From an uncultured Mycoplasmataceae bacterium (GTDB lineage Bacteria > Bacillota_I > Bacilli_A > Mycoplasmatales > Mycoplasmoidaceae): a stretch of DNA of 64,000 nucleotides. Positions 2,210-62,808 of this stretch are shown here, in pieces (within the stretch, counting starts at the first letter, position 1; every line of letters begins with the position of its first letter). The notes beneath the pieces are model-generated. The model was not told the origin of the DNA. It did no database searches and worked only from the letters and a program-made list of their open reading frames with translations. The translations under genes and the position numbers were made by a program. The stretch is taken from assembly GCA_947041945.1 (NCBI GenBank), contig CAMREV010000005.1, forward strand, positions 3,501 to 67,500, in the 5' to 3' direction.

Positions 2210-3838
2210 TTAATTTACTTTTTTTATTTCCTTTATTAAAAAGAGAATAGTTTTTTTATAGTTTTTATTTAGATAAAACTGTTCTGCAACATCTATTTTA
2301 TTAACAAATGATTTATTTTTTATTAAAAATTTATTTGAATACATCAATAATTCTTCAGCATAAAATCTTAATTTAATTTCTTTTTCAACATAAGATTTTG
2401 CTTTTATTAATTCTACTTTTTTATCAATAAGCATTTCATAAAATTTTTCATTAAATGCTTTTTTATAATTTCTATTTAACTCGCTTTCAAGATGTTCAAT
2501 AAATTCATAAATATAATCAACTTCATTTGATATTGAATTTGCTGAAATATCATATTCATCTATTGCTCCAATTATTTTAGCAATTGAAAATTTATAATTT
2601 GAGATTTCTTTAACAAAAGAAGAAAAGTTTGAATATTTATCTTCCAAAGATTTTATTACATAATTAATTGATATAAGTCAAGTGTAAATTAGGTTTATGG
2701 TATCATTCAAAAATGAAATATAGGTTTCCGCAGTATGATCATTTGGATTTTTATTATATTTTATTATTTTATATTTATCTAAAAGCTTATTTGTTAAATT
2801 ATATATGTATTTTATTCTTGAAAATATATGCTCATCATTTTTGAAATTTTCATGAATTAAATTAAGAACCGAATAAATATTATTTTCTTCATTCTTTATT
2901 TTAGAAAGTCAATCTAAGATTTGATCAGTATGTTCTGAAGAGAATGAATTAGTTTTAATTGTATATTTTAGTTTTGAATCAATATTATGTATTGCTTCAA
3001 AACAATCTTTTATGTCATTACCAATATTATCAAAAGAAGAAAACTTTAATTCATTTTTAATGTTTTTATATTTGCTTTTTAGTGATGAAAGATTCTTTTC
3101 AACAACAACATTATCTCTTTGTCTGATTGTTTTAATTCCACTTATTAAAAGTTTTTCAATTTCATTAATATTTGATTCAATAAATGAAAGAATTTTATCA
3201 ACTTTATAAGAATTTTTAAATAATTTTATCATGCTTGAAAATATATCATTAATATTTGTTGTAGTATCAAAGAAAGTATTTATATCAAATTCTCTTTTTA
3301 GATCATTCAAATCTTCTATTTCTCTATGAAGCTGCTTAAATTTAATATCCACAAATTCATTGTCATATTTTCTCATCAAATTTGCCTCAAAAAAATGCAT
3401 TGTATCTTTTAAAATTTCAGTGTATTGTATTAAAACATTTGAAATGTTTTCATAAAGAGTTGTACTAAGTTTTATTTTTTCATCATGTTCTCTTAATGAA
3501 GCAAAAATTTGATTTATATCTTCATTAATTATTTTTGAAACTTTTTGTGATTCAAATAAATTAAATTCTCCATTTAATTCAGTAAGGTATATTAAATTAT
3601 TTCTTAAAATATTTAATTTTGAATTGTACTCTGTTTGAAAATCAAAAGACATATTTATTATTGGATTAAAATAACCATCTAATTCGGAAACATTGTTTGT
3701 TGATTCAATTTTAGTTTTAAAATCAATTGTCTCTAAGAAATTAGAAGCTTTTTTAAATTTTATTTCTTTAATTCTAAGATTTCTTTTTCAAATAAAAATG
3801 GAAAAAGAAATTAGCAAAAAAAATAAACTAAGTGCCAT
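2210..3838 (-). CDS. Membrane-anchored coiled-coil protein, EzrA-like (septation ring formation regulator candidate)
   Basis: ORFs 2210..2647 and 2909..3652 share a frame. The junction at 2909 is TGA, and I found no in-frame TAA/TAG in 2648..2908. Upstream extension gives an N-terminal TM segment (..NSIVLMALSLFFLLISFSIFIW..) with ATG at 3838 (alternative GTG at 3871). The product is ~542 aa, TM plus long helical body, with a C-terminal ..AEELLMYSNKF..VAEQFYLNKNY.. resembling the EzrA C-terminus. Confidence 0.5.
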
Positions 3839-39868: not shown

Positions 39869-39942
39869 GGTACCTTAGCCAAGTGGTAAGGCAAAGAGCT
39901 GCAACCTCTTCATCATCAGTTCAAATCTGATAGGTACCTCCA
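39869..39942 (+). tRNA. tRNA-Cys (GCA)
   Basis: A cloverleaf was folded by hand. The acceptor is ggtacct/aggtacc, the anticodon loop is ctGCAac, the T-loop is ttcaaat, and the 3' CCA is encoded. Confidence 0.85.
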
Positions 39943-39947
39943 TATAT

Positions 39948-40024
39948 GCATCTTTAGCTCAATTGGATAGAGCATTTGTCTACGAAACAAAAGGTTATAG
40001 GTTCAAGTCCTGTAAGGTGCGCCA
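39948..40024 (+). tRNA. tRNA-Arg (ACG)
   Basis: Cloverleaf with acceptor gcatctt/aaggtgc, anticodon loop ctACGaa and encoded CCA. Confidence 0.85.
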
Positions 40025-40157
40025 TTTATAATAAACAATACTATTAATTATATATTATCGATTTTTTTATTTATATAATTTGATATAATAATTAAGTTAT
40101 AATAATGAATTAATTTCATATATAATTATTTTGTTTTTTTAAATACAAATAAACATT

Positions 40158-40234
40158 CGGGAAGTAGCTTAGCTTGGTAGAGCACTTGGTTTGGGACCAA
40201 GGGGTCGCAGGTTCAAATCCTGTCTTCCCGACCA
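40158..40234 (+). tRNA. tRNA-Pro (TGG)
   Basis: Cloverleaf with acceptor cgggaag/cttcccg, anticodon loop ttTGGga and encoded CCA. Confidence 0.9.
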
Positions 40235-40241
40235 TTTTTAT

Positions 40242-40318
40242 GGCAGGGTATCTCAGTTGGTTAGAGAACTCGGCTCATACCCGGGGTGTCGTGGGTTCAA
40301 GTCCCACTCCTGCTACCA
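40242..40318 (+). tRNA. tRNA-Met elongator (CAT)
   Basis: Cloverleaf with anticodon loop ctCATac. It occupies the Met position of the conserved Mollicute/Bacillus tRNA cluster order. Confidence 0.75.
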
Positions 40319-40324
40319 ATATTT

Positions 40325-40400
40325 GGAGCTATAGCTCAATGGTTAGAGCCCCCGACTCATAATCGGTAGGTTACAGGTTCGAGTCCTGTTAGCTCCACCA
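40325..40400 (+). tRNA. tRNA-Ile2 (CAT, presumably lysidine-modified) or second tRNA-Met
   Basis: Cloverleaf with acceptor ggagcta/tagctcc and anticodon loop ctCATaa. The Ile assignment rests only on cluster-order analogy. Confidence 0.6.
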
Positions 40401-40453
40401 ATTTAAAAAAAACAAAGAAAATTAATATTTATTGTTAATATTAATTTCAAAAT

Positions 40454-40546
40454 GGAGGATTACCCAAGTCCGGTTGAAGGGGTCAGTCTTGAAAACTGAA
40501 AGGCGGCGTGAGTCGCGCGGGGGTTCGAATCCCTCATCCTCCGCCA
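40454..40546 (+). tRNA. tRNA-Ser (TGA)
   Basis: Class II tRNA with a long variable arm, anticodon loop ctTGAaa, acceptor ggaggat/atcctcc and encoded CCA. Confidence 0.9.
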
Positions 40547-40553
40547 TTTATAT

Positions 40554-40629
40554 CGCGGGATAGAGCAGACGGTAGCTCATCAGGCTCATAATCTGAAGGT
40601 CGGTGGTTCGAGTCCACCTCCCGCAACCA
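40554..40629 (+). tRNA. Initiator tRNA-fMet (CAT)
   Basis: The 5' cgcggga and 3' tcccgca leave a C1:A72 mismatch typical of bacterial initiators. The anticodon loop is ctCATaa. Confidence 0.8.
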
Positions 40630-40633
40630 ATTT

Positions 40634-40709
40634 GGTCCTGTGGTGTAGTGATTAACATGCCTCTCTGTCACAGAGGAGATCGCGGGTTTGAGTCCCGTCA
40701 GGACCGCCA
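40634..40709 (+). tRNA. tRNA-Asp (GTC)
   Basis: Cloverleaf with acceptor ggtcctg/caggacc and anticodon loop ctGTCac. Confidence 0.9.
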
Positions 40710-40714
40710 TTATT

Positions 40715-40790
40715 GGCTTCTTAGCTCAGTCGGTAGAGCAACAGATTGAAAATCTGTGTGTCGACAGTTCGATTCTGTCAGAAGCCACCA
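40715..40790 (+). tRNA. tRNA-Phe (GAA)
   Basis: Cloverleaf with acceptor ggcttct/agaagcc and anticodon loop ttGAAaa. Confidence 0.9.
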
Positions 40791-42553: not shown

Positions 42554-42580
42554 AATAATCTAGTTGTATTTTTTATTTTG
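42545..42580. terminator. Bidirectional hairpin terminator between convergent rnc and the rRNA operon
   Basis: Hairpin tacaactag-aataat-ctagttgta with T-runs on both strands. It includes the rnc stop codon. Confidence 0.6.
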
Positions 42581-42687
42581 AGTAGCATTTACCTATTCTC
42601 ACTTTTGGGCTACCTTCGGCTCCATAATGCTTAACTTCTGTGTTCGATATGGGAACAGGTGTTTCCATTACGATATTGACACTACAC
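42581..42687 (-). rRNA. rrf: 5S ribosomal RNA
   Basis: The reverse complement contains ..cctgttcccatatcgaacacagaagttaagc.. (conserved 5S loop B/helix III region). Length is ~107 nt and the ends are approximate. Confidence 0.8.
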
Positions 42688-42694
42688 AAAAAAG

Positions 42695-42718
42695 ATAGTT
42701 CTCTGAAAACTGAATATT
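42695..42718 (-). promoter_or_regulatory. 3' half of the 23S rRNA processing stem
   Basis: atagttctctgaaaactgaatatt is the reverse complement (23/24) of 45776..45799. Confidence 0.7.
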
Positions 42719-42747
42719 ATTTTACAATCAATCTAACTTATAAATTT

Positions 42748-45633
<2,886 letters not shown>

Positions 45634-45775
45634 ATGATATCTTCAATTAATATTTGTTAAATTTTTTAACATTTGTTTTTTGTTAGAGTGTTTTTTGCTA
45701 TAAAAATATTCTTGATTTTACAATCAAAAATTCCTTATAGTCTTTATTTTTAAATTAGACTAAAAAGATTGTTAA

Positions 45776-45799
45776 TAATATTCAGTTTTCAAAGAACTA
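45776..45799 (-). promoter_or_regulatory. 5' half of the 23S processing stem / boxA-like element in the ITS
   Basis: The transcript reads ..atagttctttgaaaactgaatatt.., matching the Gram-positive boxA-like TGTTCTTTGAAAACT motif. It is complementary to 42695..42718. Confidence 0.7.
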
Positions 45800-45819
45800 T
45801 CTTGAGAGAAAATACTCTC

Positions 45820-45837
45820 AAAACTAAATAGAATCTG
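45820..45837 (-). promoter_or_regulatory. 3' half of the 16S rRNA processing stem
   Basis: aaaactaaatagaatctg is the exact reverse complement of 47450..47467. Confidence 0.7.
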
Positions 45838-45930
45838 ACCATAAAATTTCTTATACTTATACAAGCAATATTTTATGGATTTTAATAATGTACACTAATT
45901 AAAGTGTTAATTTTGTAAATTAACTCCATT

Positions 45931-47445
<1,515 letters not shown>

Positions 47446-47449
47446 TTGA

Positions 47450-47625: not shown

Positions 47626-48915
47626 TTATATTATTTCGGCCACAACGCCATCAAGAGTTACTTTCTTAATTTTAACTCTTTTTAATTGACCAGTTAAATC
47701 TTCTTTTGTTTTAACTAATACCTTAATATACTCAGAAGAGAAACCTTCTTGAAAGGAAGTTGAACAAGATTTTTCAAAAACAACATTAGTTTCTTTGCCT
47801 ATAAAAGATTTGACTATTTCTTTTCTAATATCATTTTTAAATTGAGTTATTTCCTTTATTCTTCTTTTTTGTGTATTTGAATTTAGGCATTTTAACCTTG
47901 ATGCAGCTGTCATTTTTCTTTTTGAATATGGAAAAATATGCATATCTAAAAATCTAATTTTTTTTAATCACTCAATTGAGTCTAAATGATCTTCTTCAGT
48001 TTCAGTAGGGAAGCCAACAATGTAGTCTGTAGTAAAAGTTGAGTTTGGAGATTTTTCTCTAATTTTACAAACAAGTTCATAAAATTTCTCACTACTATAT
48101 TTTCTATTCATTTCTTTTAAAACTTTATTTGAACCTGACTGTAAACATATGTGTCATTGTTGACAAAATCTTTCTGGATTACTTGTAACTATATTAACTA
48201 TTTCATCAGTGATTTGAAATGGTTCAACTGATGAAATTCTTATTCTAAAATTACCTTCAATTTTATTTATTTCATTAAGCAGATTTTCAAAATTATGTTT
48301 TCCATCATCATAGCCAGCAGTGTTAACTCCAGTAATAACAATTTCCCTATAATTTTTCTTAAGTTCTTTTATTTCCTTTATTAAAATATTTAAATCTTTA
48401 GATCTTTGTTTGCCTCTTGAAAAAGGAATAATACAATATGAACACATAAAATTACATCCATCTTGTATTTTAATAAATGCTCTTGTTTGATTTGTGAAAT
48501 TTATATCTTCATTTTTTTCAAATTTATTATTCAAGAATAGATTTTCAATTTTATTAATTCTCTCTCTTTTCTTTTCAAATTCTGTAATTAGTTCATAAAC
48601 ATCATTCTTATATTTATTTCCAATTAAAATATCAATGTTGTACTTTTCTCCAATATCACTATTCATTTGTGTGTAACAACCTGAAGCGATCACAATTGAA
48701 TTGGGGTTGTACTTTCTAGCTCTTTTTATTATATTAATTGATTTCTTATCTGCCTTTTCTGTAACAGTGCAAGTATTAATAATATAAATATCAGAAAAAC
48801 TATCAAATGGTTTCTCTATGTAACCATTAATTAATAATTGATTTCGCATTGAATTGGATTCAAAGATATTAACTTTGCAACCTAGTGTATAAATAGCAAA
48901 TGTATTACTTTGCAT
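47626..48915 (-). CDS. mtaB: Radical-SAM methylthiotransferase, MtaB/MiaB family
   Basis: Pieces 48154..48915 and 47626..47943 share a frame joined by the TGA at 48154. It has an N-terminal UPF0004 Cys triad (..LGCKVN..NTCTVT..SGC..), a radical [11 protein letters not shown] motif and a C-terminal TRAM-like domain. Confidence 0.8.
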
Positions 48916-49435
48916 TTTCTATTTTCTCACTATTAGATTTTGGTTCTTCAACTTTTTCATCTTTTTTTGTATTTTCACCATTTTTTCTTTTTTCAGTGTC
49001 AACATTTACTTTGAAAATAAAGTATTGATGAAATCCAACACCAATTAAAGAAATTGCCAAAACAATACAAATAAGAATTATTGCAAGTGAAGAATTAGTA
49101 CCTCATTTTTGATACATAGAAAAAAAAGTGATAAATGAAAGAGAAAAAATCATATTAGTTAAGTTGATATAGATTGAAATTCAATCATAAAATATTCAGT
49201 TCTTAGACATGTGCATTCTTATCAAAGAATATTCTCTTGTTAAAAGAATCATATAGATAGTTGAAGTAATAGCAGATATAGATGAAAAAACAATAATAGG
49301 TAGTATTTGACCTAAAATATTATTTGATTTATTTGCAACAAAAATTATCGATATCATTACACCTAATACTATAGAAAGAGATGAAGCCTTATATAATACA
49401 TCTAATAATACTTTTGTAATGTTATTATTTTTCAT
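48905..49435 (-). CDS. Hypothetical integral membrane protein (176 aa)
   Basis: ORF 49196..49435 extends through TGA codons to TAA 48905. It has about 4 hydrophobic helices and a charged C-terminal tail, and overlaps the mtaB start by 11 nt. Confidence 0.55.
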
Positions 49436-50498: not shown

Positions 50499-50783
50499 TT
50501 ACCTAAGAATAATATTAACATAGAAATCATTTATTTTAAGTTCTGAGCTTAAGATAAATAAAATTTCTTTTTTTAGAGAGTCAATCTCACCAATAATGTC
50601 TTTATTTAAATTTTCATTAATATAAATGTACATTTCATTATTATCATCTTTATTTAGAAATGAATCAATACTAATATTTTTATATTTATAATTTGAACTT
50701 TCAATATATTCTAAAATATACTTAGTAATTGAATCAACTTCAATATATATTGAGTCATTATTTTTATTAAATATTTTATACAT
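50499..50783 (-). CDS. Small Asp23/Gls24-like protein (position-based call)
   Basis: ORF 50499..50810. The ATG at 50783 gives an 8-nt overlap with the efp stop, and an alternative ATG lies at 50810. It occupies the slot between efp and nusB that Firmicutes fill with an Asp23-family gene. Confidence 0.45.
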   Translation of the reverse strand: MYKIFNKNNDSIYIEVDSITKYILEYIESSNYKYKNISIDSFLNKDDNNEMYIYINENLNKDIIGEIDSLKKEILFILSSELKINDFYVNIILR

Positions 50784-51348
50784 TTTTACTTCTTCCAATA
50801 TATTCACCATTGCTTGTGTTTATTATTACATTTTCACCAGTTTTAATGAATTGAGGAACATTTATTTCATAGCCAGTTTCAAGAACAGCTTTTTTTAGTG
50901 CAGCTTGTGCAGTGTTACCTTGAACTGCTTCTTCAGCAAACTCAATTTTTAATGTAACTTGATCAGGTAAGTATATTCCTAAAATTTCAGATTCATATAT
51001 CATTATGTTAAATTCTAAACCTTCAACTATAAAATTCTTTTCTCATTCAAGTTTGTTACTAGGAATTTCATATTGTTCAAAATTTTCTAAATCCATGAAA
51101 ATATAGTTAGAACCATCTACATAAGAAAAAGAACATTTCTTTTTTAATACATTTGCTTGCTCTAATTTTTCACCAGTTAATACTTCAACTGTAATTGATT
51201 GATTTCTAAGATTTTTAACTTTACACTTTACTATTCCTTCTCTCATTGCAGTTTTATTAAAAGAATTTTCTATTACTAAATAGATATTGTTTTTATATAA
51301 AAAAGTATGTCCAGGTCTTAGATCTTTTGCATGTATTATTTGTGCCAT
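50776..51348 (-). CDS. efp: Elongation factor P
   Basis: Pieces 51043..51348 and 50776..51003 share a frame joined by the TGA at 51043. It has an EF-P KOW-like N-terminus and ..VPQFIKTGE.. Confidence 0.95.
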
Positions 51349-51382: not shown

Positions 51383-51416
51383 AAATAAAAAATAAATAAT
51401 TACTATTGTAATTATT
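51383..51416 (-). terminator. Rho-independent terminator closing the coiled-coil two-gene unit
   Basis: The minus-strand RNA forms AATAATTAC-AATA-GTAATTATT (9 bp) followed by TATTTTTTATTTT. It overlaps the TAA of the 404-aa gene. The efp -10 (TATAAT, 51382..51377) follows. Confidence 0.55.
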
Positions 51417-52626
51417 TATCTAAATCTGCTTTTGTTATTTTTGGTGATTTATGTTCTACAATTTCAAAGAAATGAGATTGTTTTCTTTTTCTTCCATTAT
51501 CAAATTTTTTAACTGATTCAGTTCTTGGTGGGAATGGAGAAGGATTTTTAACTAATGGAGCTGCTGCTACTTTAGTTTCAGATACATTTAAATTATTGTT
51601 TAATAATTCTCTTAATCTTCTATTTTCTTCTTCTCTTAATTTTAATTCATTCGCAACATTATCAACTGGAGTAGACATTCTAATTCCTAATGGTTCAAGT
51701 CCTTTTTCTAAAGAAGAAATTCTTGTTTCATATTCATCTCTTAATAATTTTAAAGCTTTGTTGTTGATAATATCAGAAATATCATTTTCATTTACATGAG
51801 ATTTATTAATAACATTTTGAGATAATCTTCTAATTTCTTTTTCTTGAGCTTCAATTATGTTAGTTAACTCAACTAATCTTTGATTATTTGCTAATCAAGC
51901 TTTTTGAGTAACTTCAGATTGGCTGTTTAATTTAGATACTTCATCTAAAGCAAGTTTTTTACTTTCATTTTCGATGAATGAACTTATATCATCTTTTGTA
52001 TAAGTTTGTATCCCATCTGCAGCTCTTATTTTCACAATTTTTGTTTTTGGTAGCTCACCATTAAAGTAGTCGTATTTCATATCTTCATCTCCGTTTTTAT
52101 ATTCGTAAATTCCATCATCCTCTAATGAAAGATTTTTTTTTTGGAATTCTTCTTCTCAATTTAAATTATAATGCAATGGTTTATTATTTTTTAAGAAATC
52201 TTTAGAATCATTAGTTAATTCATTTCTATTAACAAAGTTTAATTCTTCTTCAAGAAAAGAGTCAATATTCATATTAACTTTTTTCAAATTATCTTTAAAT
52301 AATAATTTTGACTTTTCTTGAATTCTATTACTAGAATCTTCTAAACCATTTGAGTTAGGATTTTCTAATTGAATTAATCTATTTTCTATTGAAGAAAATG
52401 ACTCTTTATTTTCCATAAAATTTCTATCAATTTTATTCGATAAGTAATCTAGATTGATTATTAGTTTTTCATAAATATTGTTAATATTGCTATCCAAATT
52501 TGTCATGAAATTATCTAGTTCGTTATCAGAAAAATTTTTAGAGTCAATTTGATTATCACCAGATAAATGAATATCAAATTTTTCTTTGTTCAATAAGTTA
52601 GAAATATATTGACTTCTGTATCTCAT
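51412..52626 (-). CDS. 404-aa coiled-coil protein, paralogous to the modules of the upstream giant gene
   Basis: Pieces 52156..52626, 51895..52080 and 51412..51678 share a frame. The junctions at 52156 and 51895 are TGA, and I found no in-frame TAA/TAG between them. It has an ATG with an AAGGA SD, a true TAA at 51412, and the boundary motif ..QKAW-LANNQRLVEL.. Confidence 0.7.
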
Positions 52627-52666: not shown

Positions 52667-55600
52667 TTATAGCAATCTTTTCTTATGATTTGCTATTAAT
52701 TTTTCGATTGCTTCTTTTTCTTTTTGATTAAGATTTGCATCTTTTTGACTTGTATTAATTTGATTAGCTTCTTTGAAACCTTTTTCATGTTCAATAATGA
52801 TATCTTCTAGTAAAGATATTCTTTGAACATTTTTTAATCAAGCTCTATGTGATTTATTTAATTCAGAATTGTTTTCTTCAAAAATTTTCACAAATGTTCT
52901 TAATTCTGCAGCAATAATTTCTTCTGAATATTTTAAAATTAATTTTTTAATTTCTTCTTTATCTTTTAAATTATCATCAATTTTGAAATCAATATTTTTT
53001 AAAGTCTCATCAATTCTTTTGTGAAGATTTACATCAATTTCATTAGTTATTTGAAGTATTTCTTTGTAAAGATTTTCTGCTGAAATTTCTTGTTTTTTAG
53101 TAATTTCATTTATTTGATTTGAAATAAAAGTATTTTCACTTTCAATTGAACTTATTTCACTTTCTAATTTTGAAATGTTTTCATTAATTTTTGAAATATC
53201 ACTATTTTCACCAATATTAGATAGTAAATGTGTTTGTTTTTCAATTTGTTGTTCTAATTCTGATATTTTTTTATTATTAATAACTCATAAATTGTAAACT
53301 TTTTTAATTTCATTTGAAGAAGTATCAGCATATTTTTTAAGATCAATAATGTTATTATTGTTGAATGCAGAAATATTCATTACTTCATCAATTAAAGATT
53401 CAATTTTTAAATTACAATTTCAAATTTCATCAAATATTAATTGATTAATTTTCACATTCTTATTATTTAGTTTATGAATAATATTTTTAACTTCTTCTTT
53501 TATTTTTCTATCTTCTTCTGATAAAATTAAAAGTTCTTTTTTGAATGGTAGATTATTAATTTCTTTTGTAACAATACTATAAACTATTTCTTCAATAGAT
53601 TTAATAATGTCTGTTTCTTTAATAATTTTTCTTGGATCAAGATTTATAGAAATAGCATCAATTTTATTATCAATTTCATTAATAATTTCTTTAATGTTAT
53701 TTTCAAAATCTTTTTTGAAATTAAATAGATTATCTTCTAAAATTAAATTTTTATTTTTTAAAGATTCAATTTCATTATTAATAGATCCGTCCATTTCAAG
53801 AATATCTAATAAATTTTCTTGTAAAGAATTGTTTTTGTAATCTAAGCTATCGATATCATATCTTTGTTTTTCTAATTCATCTTTTAACATATTATCTAAT
53901 GATTTTAATTTTTCATTATTTAATAATCAGTCTTTTTGAATTCTTGATATCTCTTCTGAGATACTATCATTGATATGAGCAAGTTCATTTATTTTTTCTA
54001 AACCTTCTTTTTTATCAAATTTTTGATTAACATCTTCTACTAATTTTTGAATTCTTTCATTTGCTAATTCATAGTTGTTATTAACTAAGCTATGAATTAT
54101 ATCAATTGATTCTCTATTTTCGCTTATGTTAACTGTAGCATTTTCTAAAAATTCCATTGAATTTTTATATACTAAATCAACTTTAGAATTAAAGTCTTCA
54201 CCAATTTCTTTTTTAACATCAGAAACTAAATCATCCATTTTATTTACAAGAATAGTTTTTTGATTTTTAAGGTTTTTTTCAATTTTAGAATTATCCTTCA
54301 TGATTTCCATGATTTCAAATTTTAAATTTTCATCAACTTTAATTAACTCATCCATTTTTCTTTTTAAGTCTGGAGATGGTTCATAATCACTATTCATGTT
54401 AGTTAATTCACTTGATTGGTTTTCTAATAAATCTATGAAAGAAGTTAATTTGAAATTATTTAATAATCATAATTTTTTATTTTTTTCAATTTCATTATTT
54501 ACTGAAACATTAAGTTCTTTTAAGTCAGCAATTTTATGATCTAAATCAACACCAGAAACTTGAATATCAGAAGATAATTTTTCTTCTAATAATACAATGT
54601 TGTTATTGCAATTATTTAAGTCTTCACTTAAGAATTTATTCATATCTTCAAATTTAGATGCAGATTCTTCGCTAGCTACTCTTAAACTATCAACTAATTC
54701 CAATGTTTCTTTTAATAAGCAATCTATTTTTTCAGAGAAATCATCAGTTAAAGAATCAGATAAGTTTTTAATTTCTGTATCTATTTTATCACCAATTTCT
54801 CTTTCAATAGAGAACATTTTTTCATTTACATCAGATTCCATTGTTTTGATTCTGTCTTTAATTTTAGATTTTTCAGATAATAGTTTACTTTTGATTGAAT
54901 CAGTTTCAGAATATATAGATTCAATTTCTTCTTTTATATTTTTTTCAGATTCAAAAAGCTCTTGAATTCTATCAAATGATAAATTTCAAACTTCTTCACT
55001 ACTTCTACTTAATGATCTTAATTCTTCAGATTGAGATAATAATATTTCTTCTAGAGAAGTTAATTTCTTATTATTAGTTATTCATGAATCATAGATTTTT
55101 TTAATTTCATACATTGAAGTATCATTGTCTGATCTTAATTGTTCAACTTTTTCAACTAATGGTTTAAATTTAGGATCTTCTTCTGGAAGTAAATTAATTT
55201 GCTCATTAATTTCAAATAAATTATTATTTACTTCTAGAACGAAGCTATTAACTTCTTCTTTTAATTTGTTAATTTCTTCTGAGTTATTTTCAGCGAATGA
55301 ATGAACTTGGTTGATGATTTCTGTCATTTCAGAATATAGAGAAGAAATTTTTTCGTTGATATCTGTAGAAACTTTTGAAACCTTTTCATCAATTTCACTT
55401 GAAAGGATTTCTTTTGAAGCAGAAATTTCTTTAGATAAATCATTTTGTATTTCTTCAATTCTTTCAAGAACTTTTTCTTTTTCAGTTGTTAATTTTGTAT
55501 GAATAGCGTTAGTTTCAACATAGAATGATTCAATTTCTTCTTTTATAGTTTTTTCAGATTCAAAAAGCTCTTGAATTCTATCAAATGATAAATTTCAAAC

Positions 55601-58600
55601 TTCTTCACTACTTCTACTTAATGATCTTAATTCTTCAGATTGAGATAATAATATTTCTTCTAGAGAAGTTAATTTCTTATTATTAGTTATTCATGAATCA
55701 TAGATTTTTTTAATTTCATACATTGAAGTATCGTTGTCTAATCTTAATTGTTCAACTTTTTCAACTAATGGTTTAAATTTAGGATTTTCCTCTGGAAGTA
55801 AATTAATTTCCTCATTAATTTCAAATAAATTATTATTCACATCAACTACAAAAGTATTAACTTCTTCTTTTAATTTGTTAATTTCCTCTGCATTGTTTTC
55901 TGTGAATGCATTTATATCATGAATGATTTCTGAAATTTCAGAATATAAAGCTGTAATTTTTTCTTCAATTTCAGAAGATATCTTAGCAACTTTAGTATCA
56001 ATATCATTCATTACTTTTTCTTCAGAAGCATTTATTTCAGCTAATAATTTTTCCTCAGAGCTAATAATTTCAGCTAATACTTTTTCTTCAGAAGCATTGA
56101 TTCCTTTTAATAGATCATTGTTAATTAAATCTATCTTATTGTGAATTTTATCTTTTTCTTCAGTTAATTTATTTTTAATATCTTTATTTTCAGTATAAAT
56201 ATTTTCAATTTCTTCTTTTATAATTTTTTCAGATTCAAAAAGTTCTTGAATTCTATCAAGTGAAATATTTCAAACTTCTTCACTACTTCTACTTAATAAT
56301 CTTAATTCTTCAGATTGTGAAATTAATAGTTCTTCTAGAGAAGTTAATTTTTTATTATTATTTTTTCAAACATTTGTAATCTTTAAAATTTCTTTATTTG
56401 TGACTTCAGAGAATACTTTTAAATCATCGATTTCACTAATCATTTTTTGGAATCTTGGATCTTCTTCTGGTAATTTATTAACTAAGAAATCAATTTCAGA
56501 AATTTTAGAATCTACTGTCATTAAGCTTAGTCTTGTGAAACTATCTAAATTAGCAATTTCTTCTACCAATTCATTTTGTCCATCACTTAATTCATTAATA
56601 ATAGAAAGCATCTCTTGGTAAATTAAATCGATTTTCATTGCAGTGTCATTTTTAACATCTTCAATTTTCTTATCAGTTTCAGCTAAAACATTGCTTTCTA
56701 AATCACTAATAATATTTTGGATTTCATTTTTATCTTCATCAGTTTTTTGTAAAATTTTAATTTCAGATGAAGCTAAAATTTCTTTTAATTCACTTGCTTT
56801 TTCATTAAGAGCTTTTTTGTTTTTAGAAGATTCAATAATTATTTGGTTTTTAATTGTTTTGTTTTCTGTATAGATTTTCTCAATTTCTTCTTTTATTTTA
56901 TTTTCAGAAGTATGAAGTTCATGAATGAAATCATAAGCATCAGCTAAATTTCCTTCAGTGTAATCACCTAATTCAAGAATATCTTGACCTTGTTTATCTA
57001 GTTTTACTTTTAATGAATCTATCTTTTTATTGTTTTGTTTAATTAATTCAAAATTTTCTTGCATTTGATCAACTGATACTTCTGAGTATTCAAATAATTT
57101 TTTAATGTCTTCAGATATTGCAGTGAATTTTTCATTATGGTCAGGAATTGATTTAATTAAATTTTCTAATACTAACATTTCATCTTTATTACTTTGAATT
57201 TTGTTAGCAAAAGCTATTTCTACATCAGAAATTTTTTCTAATGTTGAAATATTTTCATAATGAATGCTTGAAATTTGTTCAATTAAGTCATAATTCATTT
57301 GCATTAATTTATCATCAATTTTTTCTTCAGATAAAACAATTTTAGAATCAATAACACTTTCTTGATCAGCAATCTTCTTATCTAGCTCAGAAGTTAATGC
57401 AACTAACTTTTCATTTAATTTTTCTTTGTTAGCTTCGATTTCATCTTTGAAACCTTTATTTTCGGTGTAAATTTTTTCAATTTCTTCTTTTATTTTATTT
57501 TCAGAAATATGAAGTTCATGAATTAAATCGTAAGCACCAGCTAAATTTCCTTCAGTGTATTCACCTAATGTAAGAATCTGTTGACCTTGCTTATCCAGTT
57601 TTACTTTTAATAAGTCTATTTTTTTATTGTTTTGTTTAATTGACTCAAAATTTTCTTGCATTTGATCAAATGATACTTCTGAGTTTTCAAATAATTTTTG
57701 AATGTCTTCAGATATTGCAGTGAATTTTTCATTATGGTCAGGAATTGACTTGATTAAATTTTCTAATACTAACATTTCATCTTTGTTGCTTTCAATTTTG
57801 TTAGCAAAAGCTATTTCTACATCAGAAATTTTTTCTAATGTTGAAATATTTTCATAATGAATGCTTGAAATTTGTTCAATTAAGTCATAATTCATTTGCA
57901 TTAATTTATCATCAATTTTTTCTTCAGATGAAACGATTTTAGAATCAATAACACTTTCTTGATCAGCAATCTTCTTATCTATATCAGAAGTTAGTGCAAC
58001 TAATTTTTCACTTAGTTTTTCTTTGCTAGCTTCGATTTCATCTTTGAAACCTTTATTTTCAGTGTGAATTTTTTCAATTTCTTCTTTTATAGTTTTTTCA
58101 GAATTAAATAATTCATGAATTCTATCAAATGAAGTTGAAATAGCACCTTCACTACTTGAAGCAATGAATTGAATTTCTTCTGATTGAGCAACTAATATTT
58201 TCTTTAAAGATTTACTTCTTTCTATATTCTTATTCAATTCATCATGTAAATGCATAATGTGGTCAGACTGTTCTTTATTTTCATCACTTAATCTTGCAAT
58301 AGCTTCAGTAACTTCAAGGTAGATAGGGTTATCTCTAGAAATTCCACCTCTGCTTTTTAAGTCTTCTATTTCAATTTGTAAATAATCAAAAGTTTTTAAA
58401 GTATCATTTTCAATAATTGAAATTTGTTGATTTAAATCTTGGTTATTTTCATTTAATTCATTAATTAAATTCATAACTTCATTATGAAGTGTAATTAATT
58501 TAGAATCGATGTTTGTATTGATTTCATCAATTTTTGAATCGGTATATGAAAGCATTTCAGATTCAGTTGAAGAAATTTTGTTTTCTAATTCTTCATTTAA

Positions 58601-61600
58601 GATTCTAATTTTGTTTTCTAAATTTTGTTTTTCTTCTGATAATTTTTTCTCTAATTTGCTGTTGATTGAATTAATTGAAAGTATTTCATTTTTGATTGAA
58701 CTCTCACTTTTATAAAGTTCTTCAGTTCTATTGAATAAATCACTGAAATTCATTTCAGAATTATTTACTAATGATAATATTTCCTGAGATTTATTTTCTA
58801 ATATTTTTTCTAAACTACTAATTTTTTCATTATTAGTTTTTCAAGCATCAATACAATCTCTTACTTCATTTGTAGTTTGGATTGTTGAAGTTTTGATTTC
58901 TCTAATAGTTTCAAAAAGTCTAGCAAATTTTTCATCATGTTCAGGATCTAAATGAGTGAAGTGTTCTAATTCAGCAATTTTTGAATTAACTTCAAATAAG
59001 TTTAATGAAACACCTTCATTAACAATTGATATTTCCTCAAAAGAAGTTTGGTTTTCTTTCTTCAATTCATCTATCATATTAATTGTTTCTTCATAAAGCT
59101 TGATCATTTTGTTATCAGTTTTTTCTGTAACTTTATTATCTAAATCAACAATCATAGTGTCGATGTTTGTAGAAACATCTTCAATTTTACTTTCTAGATT
59201 AGTTTTTTCTTCTTGTAATTTGCTTTCTAGTAAGCTGTTGCTTTTAAGAATTTGTTTAATTTGATCTTTTATTTTATTTTCATTTTCATATAGAACATTT
59301 ATTTTATCAAATGAATCATCAAAAGCCTCACCAGTTAATGATCTAAGGTTTTGAATTTCATTTGCTTGGTTACCTAAAACATCTTCAAGAATTTCTAATT
59401 TCTTATTATTTTCATATCATGAATTGTAGATGTCTTCAATTTTAGAAATTGCTTCAGTATTGAAACTTTTCATTTCATTTACTCTATCAATTAGATCATC
59501 AACTCTTTCATCTCTACTTGGATCAATTACAGTATTCTCAATTAAAACTTGTAGTTCTTCAATTTTTGTATTTGATTCATTTAATTTTTTTGAAAGATAT
59601 TTGTTTGTTTCTTCAATTTCAGCTCTTGTATTTTCGTTTTCAAATTGAATACTTGAAACTAATTCTAAAGTTTCATTATATAAAGCCTGAAGTTTTTCAT
59701 CAGTTTCTTGTTGAATTTTATTATCTAAGTTATCTAAGTTACTTAAAATATCATTAATTTCATGGTTAACAACTTCAATTTTATTTTCTAAGATTGAAGA
59801 ATTAGAATCTAATTGAGTTTCAAGTGTGATTATTTTTTCAGTTATTTCACCAGAAGTTTTTTCCATATGAGCAATAGATTCACCAGTTAAGTTATCTAAA
59901 TCATATTGAATTTTTTGATCAAATGAGTCAATTAATGAATGGAAGTCAGTATAAAGAATATTGATTTTTTCATCAATAGCTTCTTTTTCTGTTTCTAATG
60001 ATTTTTCAATTTTTTCATTATTTTCTCTAATAGTGTTTAATTCAACTTTGAATTCTTCACTTGTAGATTTTAAATCATCAATTTGTTTTAATGAAGCATT
60101 AATGTCCCTATGTTCACTACTTAAGTTCATTTTACTAATCTCTTTAGTATTGCTTAGGATTTTTTCTTTTAATGATTCAATTTTTTCATTATTTTCATCT
60201 CACATTAAATGAGTTTTTTTAATATCTTTTTTATGTTTTTCTATAGAGTCAAAAATATTTTCTATATTATGGGCATTTTCATCATAAATAGCAAATTGAT
60301 CACTAGAAAGTCTTCCCATTTGTTCATCAAAAGAATCGAATCTAGATTCAACAGACATAAATAGATCTTCAAATCTTCTTTGAGATTGGATCATTTCATC
60401 TATTATATCAGAAGTAATTTTATTCATTTCTTCCATTGATTTAGAAAGGTTTGTATTTCATTCACTAATTGATTCTTTATTTTTTTCATAGAAATCATCT
60501 TTTAGTTCAGTAACTTTATCTAGAAATTCTTTTCTAAGGTTCGCATATTTAGTTTCATTTTCAGAATGAGATTCTTCAATAGAAGACAAAATAAGTCTTT
60601 CACTTCTAGCAGAAGACTCAGCAATTTTATAATCTATTTCATTATCTCTATCATGAATAATATTCAAGATATTGTTTTCAAGATCATATAATTTGGCGTT
60701 GATTTCATAGTTGATTTGTTCTACTCTTTCGTAGATCATATCTAATTTAGATTCATCTATTCTTACAACCCTTTTATTATTTTTATAATTTTCCATTTCA
60801 TCACCTTCTACTTCTTCCCATTCATCCCAAGGAACTTCCTCTATATAATTTTGATTATTATTTAGTGTTTTTTTTGTTTCAACATTTGCATTTTGATTAT
60901 TGCTATTATTAATTATTAATTCTTTTAATCTTTCAATTTCATCATGATACTTGTCATTGTTATTGTCATTACCATTATTATTTTTTTGTTTGATCAGTTC
61001 CTTTAAGGAATTGATTTCATTTAAATAAGAATTATCTGAATTTTTATTTATTAAATCAAGTTCATTTTTGAATTGATTATTATTGACACCGACAATATCA
61101 TTTAAATTAAATAGCATTTCTTTTATATGGCTTATTTGCTCATTAATATAAGATAGTTGATCTTGAGATTCAGCGTTAAGGTTATATGTTTCATTTAATA
61201 TATGACTTGTGTTTTGATAATCATTATCAAGTAGTTCTTCTCTAAGTTGAGTAGCAACATTCATTATCTCATTTAAATTTTCATTATTGCTATATAGTAA
61301 TTCTTCTCTAAGGTTAACTAGTAGGTCATTGTATATTATTGAACTTTCATCGACTTTGTCTAATATAGTGTAATCCATATTAATTGAATCTTCACTAGTA
61401 AAGTGCATTCTATTCTCTAAATCATCAAGTCTATTATGCAATTCAGCTGTTTTGTATTCTGTGTTTTCTAGAATGTTATCATTGCTATATAGTAATTCAT
61501 CTCTCAATGTATGAAATGAATCATCAAGTTTATTATGCAATTCAGTTGTTTTGTATTCTGTGTTTTCTAGAATGTTATCATTGCTATATAATAGTTCATC

Positions 61601-62671
61601 TCTAAGTGTATGAAATGAATCATCAAGTTTATTATGCAATTCAGCTGTTTTGTATTCTGTGTTTTCTAGAATGTTATCATTGCTATATAATAGTTCATTT
61701 CTTAATGTATTAAATGAATCATCAAGTTTATTGTGTAATTCAGCTGTTTTGTATTCTGTGTTTTCTAGAATGTTATCATTGCTATATAATAATTCATTTC
61801 TTAATGTATTAAGTGAATCATCTTGTCTCATAGAATTTTCTTCAACTCTATCTAAGATACTATAATCCATTGATATTAAGTCTTGATTTGTATTATCAAT
61901 TTTATTTTCTAAATTACTTATTTTATTATGAACAGCAGAACTTAAGAAATTTGTAGTATTGATTGTATTGTTTTTTAAACCCTCTTCAATTGTTTGAATG
62001 TAGTTAAATAAATTTTGAGTATTTTCATCATTAACTTTTGTTAGCTCATTATATAGATATTCGGTATTGTTACCACCTGAACTCATGTTTATAGCTTCAT
62101 ATAATGAATTTTGACTTGCATAAATTTCTTCTCTTAGAGAACTTAAAGAATCAAAGAAGTTATAGCTTAAATCCCTTTGTTCATTAATACAGTTTGATAT
62201 GTTGTTTTCTAAATAGTTAAGAGCACTATATAATTGCTCAGAATTTTTATTATTAGTATCAATAATTGTACCTATTTGATAGCTATCAACATTATTATTA
62301 GCAATACTGTCAATTGTGCTCTTATTTACACTAATTTCACTTTTTAAACTTGAAATTTGATTTAAAATGTTATTTAATTGAGAATTCAATAAAGCATTAT
62401 CTTGTTGGATAACTGGCTGAGCTACTGTTGCAGGTATATATGTTGGTTGCGAAGGCAAAGAACTTCAAGAAGAACTTGAAGCATTTCCAGAGTGAAAGAT
62501 GTTATTTCTTATATCCATTAGTTGGTTAGAAATTTTACCTTCTACATCTGTAATAAGATCATAAAGTTGCTGATTTCCACTATTACTTACTTCTGTGATT
62601 TTATTAAAAATTAAATCAAGTTCGTCTGAAAAAGTGGAGTAATTACTATTATTTTGTCTTTTCTTAGCCAC
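52667..62671 (-). CDS. Giant modular coiled-coil protein (~3,334 aa), hypothetical; candidate cytoskeletal or scaffold protein
   Basis: Eleven ORF-track pieces (62465..62671 down to 53420..53890) all have start coordinates congruent mod 3. Each junction (62465, 60458, 60200, 59417, 58841, 56366, 55691, 55082, 54467, 53927, 53420) is a single TGA. I checked the gaps by hand and found no in-frame TAA/TAG until TAA 52667..52669. An upstream in-frame TAA lies at 62684. It has a GTG start with an AAAGGG SD and no signal peptide or TM segment. Confidence 0.8.
54955..56365 (-). repeat. Near-identical coding module repeats (period 609-675 bp) inside the giant gene
   Basis: A block encoding ..KKLTSLEE(I/L)L.SQSEELR.LSRSSEEVWN.S.DRIQELFESEK.. 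occurs at ~54955..55081, ~55555..55690 and ~56230..56365. A block encoding ..EINKLKEEVN.FV..VNNNLFEINE.INLLPEE.PKFKPLVEKVEQLR.DNDTSMYEIKKIYDSW occurs at 55082..55327 and 55691..55936. Confidence 0.85.
56865..58140 (-). repeat. 597-bp (199-codon) in-frame tandem duplication inside the giant gene
   Basis: The marker caatttcttc ttttat recurs at 56881, 57478 and 58075. The protein shows two near-identical 199-aa units (..KGFKDEIEA.KEKL.EKLVALTS..DKKIADQESVIDSKIV.SEEKIDDKLMQMNYDLIEQISSIHYENISTLEKISDVEIAFANKI..) plus a partial third. Confidence 0.9.
61421..61816 (-). repeat. 4 x 99-bp (33-codon) in-frame tandem repeat inside the giant gene
   Basis: The unit start atcatcaag recurs at 61421, 61520, 61619 and 61718 (partial at 61817). 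It encodes DDS(L/F)(N/H)TLR(N/D)ELLYSNDNILENTEYKT(A/T)ELHN(K/R)L four times. Confidence 0.9.
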
Positions 62672-62747
62672 TAATAACCCTTTTTATCACTAAATTTTTT
62701 ATCTAAAATTTACACTATATACACTAATAATAATATATTTTTTGCAT

Positions 62748-62775
62748 ATTTTAGCATAAAAATAATTTAATTCAA
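62748..62775 (-). promoter_or_regulatory. Candidate promoter of the giant gene
   Basis: On the minus strand: TTGAAT (62775..62770), a 16-nt spacer ending in TGc, then TAAAAT (62753..62748, extended -10). It lies ~75 nt upstream of the GTG start, just downstream of the rplQ terminator. Confidence 0.4.
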
Positions 62776-62776
62776 T

Positions 62777-62808
62777 AAAAAAAAGCAATTTATTAATTGC
62801 TTTTTTTT
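62777..62808. terminator. Hairpin terminator after rplQ (symmetric, A-run/T-run on both sides)
   Basis: aaaaaaaagcaatt-tatt-aattgctttttttt. It overlaps the rplQ stop codon. Confidence 0.65.

Follow-up and report, generated by a model that had tools for sequence, protein, structure and literature searches.

The stretch of DNA analysed here (the window, 64,000 nucleotides (nt)) covers positions 3,501 to 67,500 of contig CAMREV010000005.1 in assembly GCA_947041945.1, from an uncultured Mycoplasmataceae bacterium placed in the Mycoplasmoidaceae by GTDB. On its minus strand, between rpoA-rplQ and efp, the window carried a giant gene for a predicted all-helical, modular protein of 3,334 amino acids (aa), followed by a smaller partner gene. 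The giant gene was laid out as follows:

52667..62671, minus strand: giant coding sequence, with a GTG start at 62671..62669 and a TAA stop at 52669..52667; product of 388 kDa, isoelectric point (pI) 4.57
60326..62671, minus strand: N-terminal head, aa 1-782, preceding the module array and without a Pfam match
52820..60325, minus strand: module array, aa 783-3284, with 12 full modules of 180-225 aa and 2 partial modules
52670..52819, minus strand: C-terminal tail, aa 3285-3334, ending in ...EKEAIEKLIANHKKRLL

A preliminary description of this locus, made from the sequence alone, had merged about a dozen small open reading frames (ORFs) into one ~10 kb gene for a protein of ~3,334 aa, taking the TGA at each junction examined as tryptophan and finding no in-frame TAA or TAG between an upstream TAA and the TAA at 52667..52669. 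Machine translation with genetic code table 4 bore this out, as 62671..52667 (minus strand) was a single ORF whose 3,334 codons included 16 TGA, 2 TGG and zero TAA or TAG, and the nearest in-frame stop 5' of the gene was the TAA at 62686..62684. Read with table 11 the same ORF broke 16 times, each break being a TGA, and the dozen small ORFs arose because mollicute DNA had been read with the standard code. The G+C content of the whole window was 25.6 %, and from its strand base composition we estimated ~0.077 TAA or TAG per random codon; at that rate the probability of 3,334 consecutive codons staying open by chance is ~e^-267, too low for the frame to be accidental. All long genes in the window used TGA near-exclusively as their tryptophan codon and TAA or TAG as stops. 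Within the giant gene, W615 was encoded by TGG in the window where four orthologues had TGA, W618 was TGG in four sequences and TGA in one, and the remaining TGA sites were tryptophan positions conserved down to 39-54 % protein identity. UGA is therefore read as tryptophan in this gene. The GTG start was common to all five orthologues, each with a purine-rich stretch resembling a ribosome-binding site (RBS) ahead of it (AAAGGG in the window), and the 51 residues ahead of the first ATG were conserved in five orthologues. Since start codon, RBS-like stretch and N-terminus are all conserved, the GTG start is well supported.

The giant ORF is thus a genuine single protein-coding gene of a mollicute (Mycoplasmoidaceae) that reads UGA as tryptophan. 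The gene call itself is not new, contrary to what the preliminary description implied in treating the merge as unrecognised: public annotation already has the giant ORF as a single gene. An identical 3,334-aa protein (P0001) is deposited at NCBI and ENA under a single gene, unnamed or "hypothetical", dozens of 93-96 % identical variants are also called full-length in public records, and named orthologues carry the label "hypothetical protein [Mycoplasmoidaceae bacterium]". Standard-code ORF tracks shatter mollicute genes; the table 4 calls in the public records are correct for this one.

The protein was composed of 13.8 % E, 11.4 % N, 11.0 % I, 10.5 % L, 9.8 % K and 9.4 % S, with a net charge of -303. 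Kyte-Doolittle and motif scans of the 3,334 aa found no transmembrane segment (maximum 19-aa mean 0.76), no signal peptide (the N-terminus, MAKKRQNNSNYSTFSDE, had no hydrophobic core), no lipobox in the first 40 aa and no P-loop or Walker A motif ([AG]x4GK[ST]). Both the E/K/N/I/L/S-rich composition and the lack of signal peptide, lipobox, transmembrane helix or enzymatic motif had been read off correctly in the preliminary description. The head comprised a conserved N-terminus, a Pro/Gln linker (aa 70-90), a set of 33-aa repeats, an Asn-rich stretch and an acidic PWDEWEE (aa 614-620). Directly after the latter, a block at ~aa 622-661 (RIDESKLDMIYERVEQINYEINAKL) was highly conserved, with 33/40 positions invariant in six aligned sequences of 54-97 % overall identity and aa 637-661 entirely invariant. 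At the other end, the tail motif ...L[IV]xNHKK[RY] was retained in distant relatives.

Modules were delimited by chunked BLAST and a module hidden Markov model (HMM). Together with a signature motif copy at aa 3277, which represents a third, C-terminal partial module, the 12 full and 3 partial modules come close to the roughly 13-15 related modules first proposed. Each module followed the same plan: a Pro-containing turn (LPEEDPKF), a helix of ~55 aa, a 3-residue turn and a helix of ~135 aa. The short helix carried the signature W-x2-N-N-x-K-[LI]-x2-L-E (module consensus W-x2-N-N-x-K-[LI]-x-S-L-E), which within the window occurred only in the giant and partner proteins, and the long helix began with the consensus SFDRIxELxxSExxIKEEIE. 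Most pairs of modules were 21-34 % identical and same-type copies were 48-81 % identical, yet each module was well conserved with its own orthologue in other species. Because the modules have diverged within the protein yet are individually conserved between species, their sequences suggest position-specific roles. Several module lengths differed by multiples of 11 (192, 203, 214, 225).

Structure prediction pointed to a protein that is all-helical as well as modular. From an alignment of 25 module sequences, AlphaFold2 modelled a single module with a predicted local distance difference test score (pLDDT) of 90 and helices at 14-66 and 70-203; two modules gave a pLDDT of 78.5 and helices of 79, 56, 137, 57 and 70 residues with breaks of 2-7 residues between them. 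The sequence had initially been called heptad-like, and this held for the short helix of each module, which was heptad-phased, its autocorrelation peaking at lags 14, 21 and 28. It did not hold for the long helices, where autocorrelation at 7, 11, 18 and 22 indicated mixed 7/11 spacing, nor for the protein as a whole, in which hydrophobic periodicity peaked at 3.6, not 3.5, and ~10 % of 28-aa windows exceeded the 99 % shuffled null for strict heptads. By their spacing, the long helices look like near-straight bundle helices or a non-canonical coiled coil. In the short helix, a heptad reading of the signature would have W occupy position a, the invariant N position d and the next L/L/I positions a/d/a, giving a buried Trp/Asn layer. 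By coiled-coil principles, buried layers of this kind fix the register between helices. From standard helix geometry we estimate that a module whose short helix doubles back on its long helix would measure ~12 nm, making ~150 nm for 12 modules, and that a fully extended helix would measure ~30 nm per module.

The second gene of the locus, which the preliminary description did not mention, was:

51412..52626, minus strand: partner gene, 404 aa, 47 kDa, beginning 40 nt after the giant stop

No terminator-like site was found between the giant and partner genes, nor before efp, and the two are probably co-transcribed. In the partner protein the signature occurred once (QKAWLANNQRLVELTNIIEAQEKEIRRL), and the C-terminal tail was basic (RKRKQSHFFEIVEHKSPKITKADLDK), with a pI of 10 for the C-terminal 60 aa. 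Its invariant blocks were MRYR, NWxxEF...LSLEDDGIYEY..G.EDMKY..NGELPKTKIVK and TQKAWLANNQRLxELTxIIExQExEIRRL, with an invariant tail of RKRKQKxFFEIxEHxSPKITKADLDK. It matched no known family, and a profile search with the partner alignment detected no homologues outside the clade, adding no lineages and no cultured species.

The preliminary description had taken the giant gene for an accessory-looking insert, which the comparative data do not support. The gene order rpoA-rplQ-giant-partner-efp-(94 aa)-nusB was identical in at least four other Mycoplasmoidaceae species represented by metagenome-assembled genomes (MAGs), and rplQ-giant-partner-efp was kept down to 39 % protein identity. The G+C content of the giant gene matched that of the surrounding genes, and its ratio of non-synonymous to synonymous substitution rates (dN/dS) was low, at 0.12. 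A mobile or accessory island was rejected on the conserved gene order and matching G+C. Partner homologues of 40-50 % identity were also present on three further contigs with different surroundings (trmB, suf genes), each with a huge ORF directly ahead of the partner (at least 578, at least 1,732 and at least 2,518 aa, as these ORFs run off the contig ends). These ORFs carried the same module, with the W-x2-NN signature in all three, and ended in ...NHKKR on two contigs and ...NHKKY on the third. The partner was always adjacent to a giant-family ORF in the contigs examined, even with other neighbours, and because the pair is retained in three lineages in which its neighbours differ, the conserved unit is the giant and partner gene pair and not the locus.

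Elsewhere around the pair, an ORF of ~94-103 aa between efp and nusB (window 50499-50810, minus strand) was conserved and syntenic in related MAGs and matched no known family. A 176-aa multi-pass membrane ORF (window 48905-49435, minus strand) had a weak DUF5453 match and was likewise syntenic. Further along, nine tRNA genes (39869-40790, plus strand) adjoined a complete 16S-23S-5S rRNA operon (42580-47446, minus strand), which accounts for a local rise in G+C to ~0.40.

Upstream of the giant gene, rplQ ended at 62807, and three features filled the interval:

62777..62808, minus strand: intrinsic-terminator-like hairpin after rplQ (A-run, GCAATT-AATA-AATTGC, T-run)
62748..62775, minus strand: promoter-like site (TTGAAT, 16 nt, TAAAAT, with a TG extended -10)
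62672..62747, minus strand: 5' leader of ~75 nt, ending in the RBS AAAGGG (62683..62678)

Among five orthologues, changes on both sides of the hairpin stem retained pairing, and this terminator-like element probably marks the boundary between the ribosomal operon and the giant gene. It was absent from the output of a consensus terminator scan because its stem has fewer than three G-C pairs; in a genome this rich in A/T, the standard rules detect too few terminators. The TATGCTAAAAT block of the promoter-like site was near-invariant across orthologues, with one G-for-C change in one of them (L004), and we regard the site as the giant gene's own putative promoter. The leader was almost invariant across orthologues of 39-96 % protein identity, its conservation being far above that of the coding sequence. 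Predicted pairing in the leader consensus fold was A/U-rich and no convincing covariation was found in it. On its conservation, the leader may be a regulatory element.

To place the family, we searched 1.84 billion representative proteins exhaustively with a HMMER module profile. True relatives were limited to close orthologues, a 1,790-aa ENA protein and two partial proteins of one MAG. The other matches checked among the top 99 lacked the signature and were of non-mollicute composition, the few with a named source being eukaryotic; these matches represent a general resemblance among coiled coils. When 185,579 species genomes were scanned for two short peptide patterns, only five Mycoplasmoidaceae MAGs matched, a lower bound since one pattern contained tryptophan and would miss TGA-encoded copies if tryptophan is back-translated as TGG. 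In these sequence searches the family was found only in one clade of uncultured mycoplasmas. Pfam searches with the whole giant protein, head fragments and the partner returned sub-threshold coiled-coil noise only, NCBIfam returned nothing at the curated cut-offs of its families, and PHROGs returned a single family of unknown function at 20 bits. Profile searches of the PDB with the module and partner alignments gave a generic helical mix, including ApoA-IV, chemoreceptors and viral fusion helices. Foldseek found 0 matches for the single-module model, and for the two-module model only chains of axonemal doublet microtubules at E>=0.075 and a TM-score of ~0.3, which we did not count as evidence.

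The number of modules differed between species, from ~10-11 in orthologue P0052 to 12 in the window and 13 in P0048. The two partial proteins, P0061 (MGL5630323.1) and P0063 (MGL5630652.1), overlapped end-to-start (TDEIIRKEIQEFDKNL...), and because of this overlap we read them as halves of one gene split between contigs. Joined, they gave a protein of ~6,350 aa with ~28-30 modules, which would be among the largest bacterial proteins. The 1,790-aa ENA protein (P0062) began with a LysR-type helix-turn-helix-like segment (MYNIEQLKMFVYAVELGSFSGSARHLGKVQSAVSQGISNLE) fused to modules; this is probably a chimeric contig or gene-call artefact and not a real fusion. Many near-identical ENA assemblies, a G+C of ~25 % and two sub-lineages ~96 % alike fit the dominant salmonid-gut Mycoplasmoidaceae (PMC8121932, PMC12341145), suggesting that the source organism most likely came from a fish gut. 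The salmonid-gut mycoplasma genome is ~0.6-0.7 Mb (PMC8121932; PMC8192413), and if the organism is of this kind it spends ~1.5 % of its genome on the giant gene.

Selection was evaluated by comparison with an allele of 96 % identity (L010). Across all 10 kb of the giant gene there were 182 synonymous and 104 non-synonymous differences (dS 0.109, dN 0.013, hence the dN/dS of 0.12). Most of the small neighbouring genes gave similar dN/dS values (0.05 for rplQ, 0.18 for the partner, 0.20 for the 94-aa ORF), with 0 for efp and 0.34 for nusB. The giant gene is under purifying selection over its full length. Proteins so costly, under purifying selection and with a dedicated partner are rarely dispensable. 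Alleles of 3258, 3291, 3302, 3334 and 3367 aa followed in-frame changes in repeat number, and two tandem repeats were polymorphic between strains:

61420..61822, minus strand: 99-bp tandem repeat in the head, 4.1 copies, encoding the 33-aa unit DDSFxTLRxELLYSNDNILENTEYKTAELHNKL
56012..56102, minus strand: 33-bp tandem repeat, 2.8 copies, encoding the 11-aa unit SEEKVLAEIIx inside a long helix

The 33-aa unit was present in 2-5 copies, varying between near-identical strains, and the alleles of 3302 and 3291 aa differed by 11 aa. Internal module duplicates of ~600 bp shared 76-89 % DNA identity. Repeat and module copies of this kind may be miscounted, in either direction, in short-read assemblies, which leaves the existence of the frame unaffected.

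What such a protein does can be approached by elimination and by analogy with HMW2 of Mycoplasma pneumoniae, and on that basis we propose, with a probability of about one half, that the giant protein has a structural role inside the wall-less cell, as an elongated rod, a filament or a scaffold that would serve as cytoskeletal spacer or "ruler". We infer a cytoplasmic location, presumed because the protein is very acidic and signal-less, along with rod geometry, self-assembly, partner binding and a scaffold function. The conserved Trp and Asn at core a/d positions of the short helix would hold neighbouring helices in register. The 47-kDa partner would attach to the rod and connect it with another component, such as the membrane or nucleic acid, and variation in module number between species could tune rod length. 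A scaffold is suggested because module number varies yet each module is orthologously conserved, as expected if positions along a scaffold are specific. Several observations weigh against this proposal. The predicted template modelling score (pTM) of the AlphaFold2 models, 0.34-0.40, did not fix the tertiary packing, so that a helical-bundle rod and an intermolecular coiled coil both fit. No homology to characterised cytoskeletal proteins was detected in the family-library, PDB or HMMER searches, and the similarity between partner and giant protein amounted to one short signature helix at 13.6 bits. A polymorphic 33-aa tandem repeat is a feature frequent in surface antigens, salmonid mycoplasmas have been described in the literature without mention of a terminal organelle or cytoskeleton, and the proposed scaffold role draws on the sequences and predicted structures of uncultured organisms.

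Giant repetitive mycoplasma proteins are often surface proteins, and one could imagine the giant protein exposed on or released from the cell, where it would be an adhesin, a variable antigen or a factor in host interaction, exported without a classical signal peptide and acting like the large repetitive mycoplasma membrane proteins. The copy-number changes of the in-frame 33-aa and 11-aa repeats between near-identical strains would suit such a role, as would a lineage-restricted protein in a host-associated symbiont. To our knowledge, however, export in Mollicutes is essentially Sec-dependent only, and the 3,334 aa contained no signal peptide, lipobox or hydrophobic segment; membership of the lipoproteins or adhesins was rejected for lack of a lipobox, signal peptide or transmembrane anchor. 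The dN/dS of 0.12 and module-by-module conservation argue against diversifying selection, and the modules are old and diverged, unlike homogenised variable antigens. We therefore consider a surface role improbable. An intracellular role outside the cytoskeleton, either as an 11-mer amphipathic membrane or lipid coat or stress protectant (apolipoprotein-, perilipin- or LEA-like) or as a nucleoid or macromolecule tether, draws on the periodicity peak of 3.6-3.65, the long-helix autocorrelation at lags 11, 18 and 22, module lengths differing by multiples of 11, a polymorphic repeat whose unit is 11 aa long, matches below threshold to apolipoprotein A-IV and to Pfam Apolipoprotein, and the partner's basic tail with its pI of 10. 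The Apolipoprotein match, however, scored 18 bits against a cut-off of 90, and the PDB matches were mixed helical proteins. With its net charge of -303 the protein is poorly suited to bind anionic membranes or DNA, its high pLDDT and the conservation of aromatic and Asn residues in the core are more suggestive of a folded rod than of a disordered protectant, and ATPase heads such as those of SMC or Rad50 were lacking. Roles of this kind seem unlikely to us.

Internal repeats of 76-94 % DNA identity could also mislead short-read assemblers, perhaps making copy numbers unreliable, and the locus might then be a repeat assembly artefact, or else a decaying pseudogene in which the small ORFs are the true genes. 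This is effectively refuted by recovery of the same full-length frame in dozens of independent assemblies from at least five species, by 3,334 codons without TAA or TAG at a dN/dS of 0.12, and by the interchange of TGA and TGG at tryptophan sites in a window where TGA means tryptophan in all housekeeping genes. Returning to the structural rod, a more specific and decidedly tentative extension would make the giant and partner proteins a previously unrecognised two-component cytoskeleton specific to fish-gut-type Mycoplasmoidaceae, in which the rod consists of position-specific ~200-aa helical modules, module number (~10 to ~30) sets the length of an internal structure and the partner docks via its Trp/Asn-core helix and anchors via its basic aromatic tail.

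HMW2 of M. pneumoniae is a 1,818-aa coiled-coil protein and a length-setting scaffold for the size of the attachment organelle (PMC8191905). Like HMW2 (MPN310/MG218 in M. pneumoniae and M. genitalium), the 3,334-aa giant protein is very large, signal-less, mainly alpha-helical by prediction and from wall-less Mycoplasmoidaceae; helical length in HMW2 sets the size of a structure, and the length of the giant family also varies by whole helical units between species. No sequence relationship to HMW2 was detected in the HMMER profile search or Pfam. HMW2 has 11 heptad coiled-coil segments, whereas the giant protein has ~200-aa modules with the W-x2-NN-x-K signature and mixed 7/11 periodicity; heptad coiled coil over most of its length, in the style of HMW2, was not found, given the ~10 % of 28-aa windows above the null. 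The HMW2 gene lies in a P65-HMW2-P41-P24 locus, unlike the rplQ/efp context of the giant gene with nusB nearby and a dedicated conserved partner. No EAGR-box or adhesin genes were seen near the giant gene, and Pfam gave no EAGR_box, P30 or P1/MgpC matches in its product.

With spectrin, alpha-actinin and EzrA the giant protein shares tandem all-helical modules, short turns, helices capable of antiparallel packing and a conserved Trp in the short helix. As in spectrin-type rods, its repeats are individually conserved, and a long continuous helix may join its modules. The spectrin repeat is ~106 aa against ~200 aa (180-225) for the giant module, Pfam Spectrin (PF00435) had no match at E<=1 in the giant protein. 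AlphaFold2 predicted alternating helices of ~56 aa and ~137 aa with turns of 3-7 residues, which at a pTM of 0.34-0.40 may or may not pack into a three-helix bundle like that of spectrin, and Foldseek matches were not significant. The transmembrane anchor of EzrA had no counterpart. Crescentin, FilP, Scy and Ccrp are, as the giant protein would be, cytoplasmic, non-enzymatic helical proteins with non-canonical periodicities, and they self-assemble into filaments; Scy contains long repeats with hendecads. They showed no sequence similarity to the giant protein, which is three to ten times larger and, unlike them, strictly modular, with Pro-containing turns, in one uncultured mollicute clade. 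The exchangeable apolipoproteins (PF01442) share an amphipathic helical periodicity of 11/22 residues and proline punctuation, and ApoA-IV (PDB 3s84) was the best, weak PDB profile match (E 6e-9 over 82 residues). That match covers part of the long helix only and is compositional in nature, and a heptad short helix with a Trp/Asn core plus extreme acidity misfits a lipid-binding class A helix; membership of PF01442 was rejected on the sub-threshold score given above. An SMC/Rad50/MukB-like ATPase was also rejected, with no Walker A and no SMC_N or AAA Pfam matches; a Rad50 coiled-coil match in an orthologue reached 20 bits against a cut-off of 1087. A phage tape-measure or tail-fibre protein was rejected in view of the single 20-bit PHROGs match and neighbours that are core housekeeping genes.

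No specific sequence or fold link to HMW2, spectrin, EzrA, SMC or apolipoproteins emerged from these searches, and the likeness to HMW2, spectrin or intermediate-filament-like rods is at most one of analogy. The giant genes constitute an uncharacterised, taxonomically narrow family with a distinctive module, signature and partner. Current discussions of the mollicute cytoskeleton rest on M. pneumoniae-type and M. mobile-type machineries; this family, having no Pfam or NCBIfam model, solved relative or cultured host, is therefore absent from them. The defined module, signature and partner offer a starting point for a family model, fragment expression, and mining of metaproteomes and cryo-electron tomography data from fish-gut mycoplasmas. 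Set beside the known systems, the family may represent an uncharacterised form of giant helical structural protein of wall-less bacteria; if the two-component cytoskeleton is real, the "molecular ruler" principle seen in HMW2 would have been invented a second time, independently.

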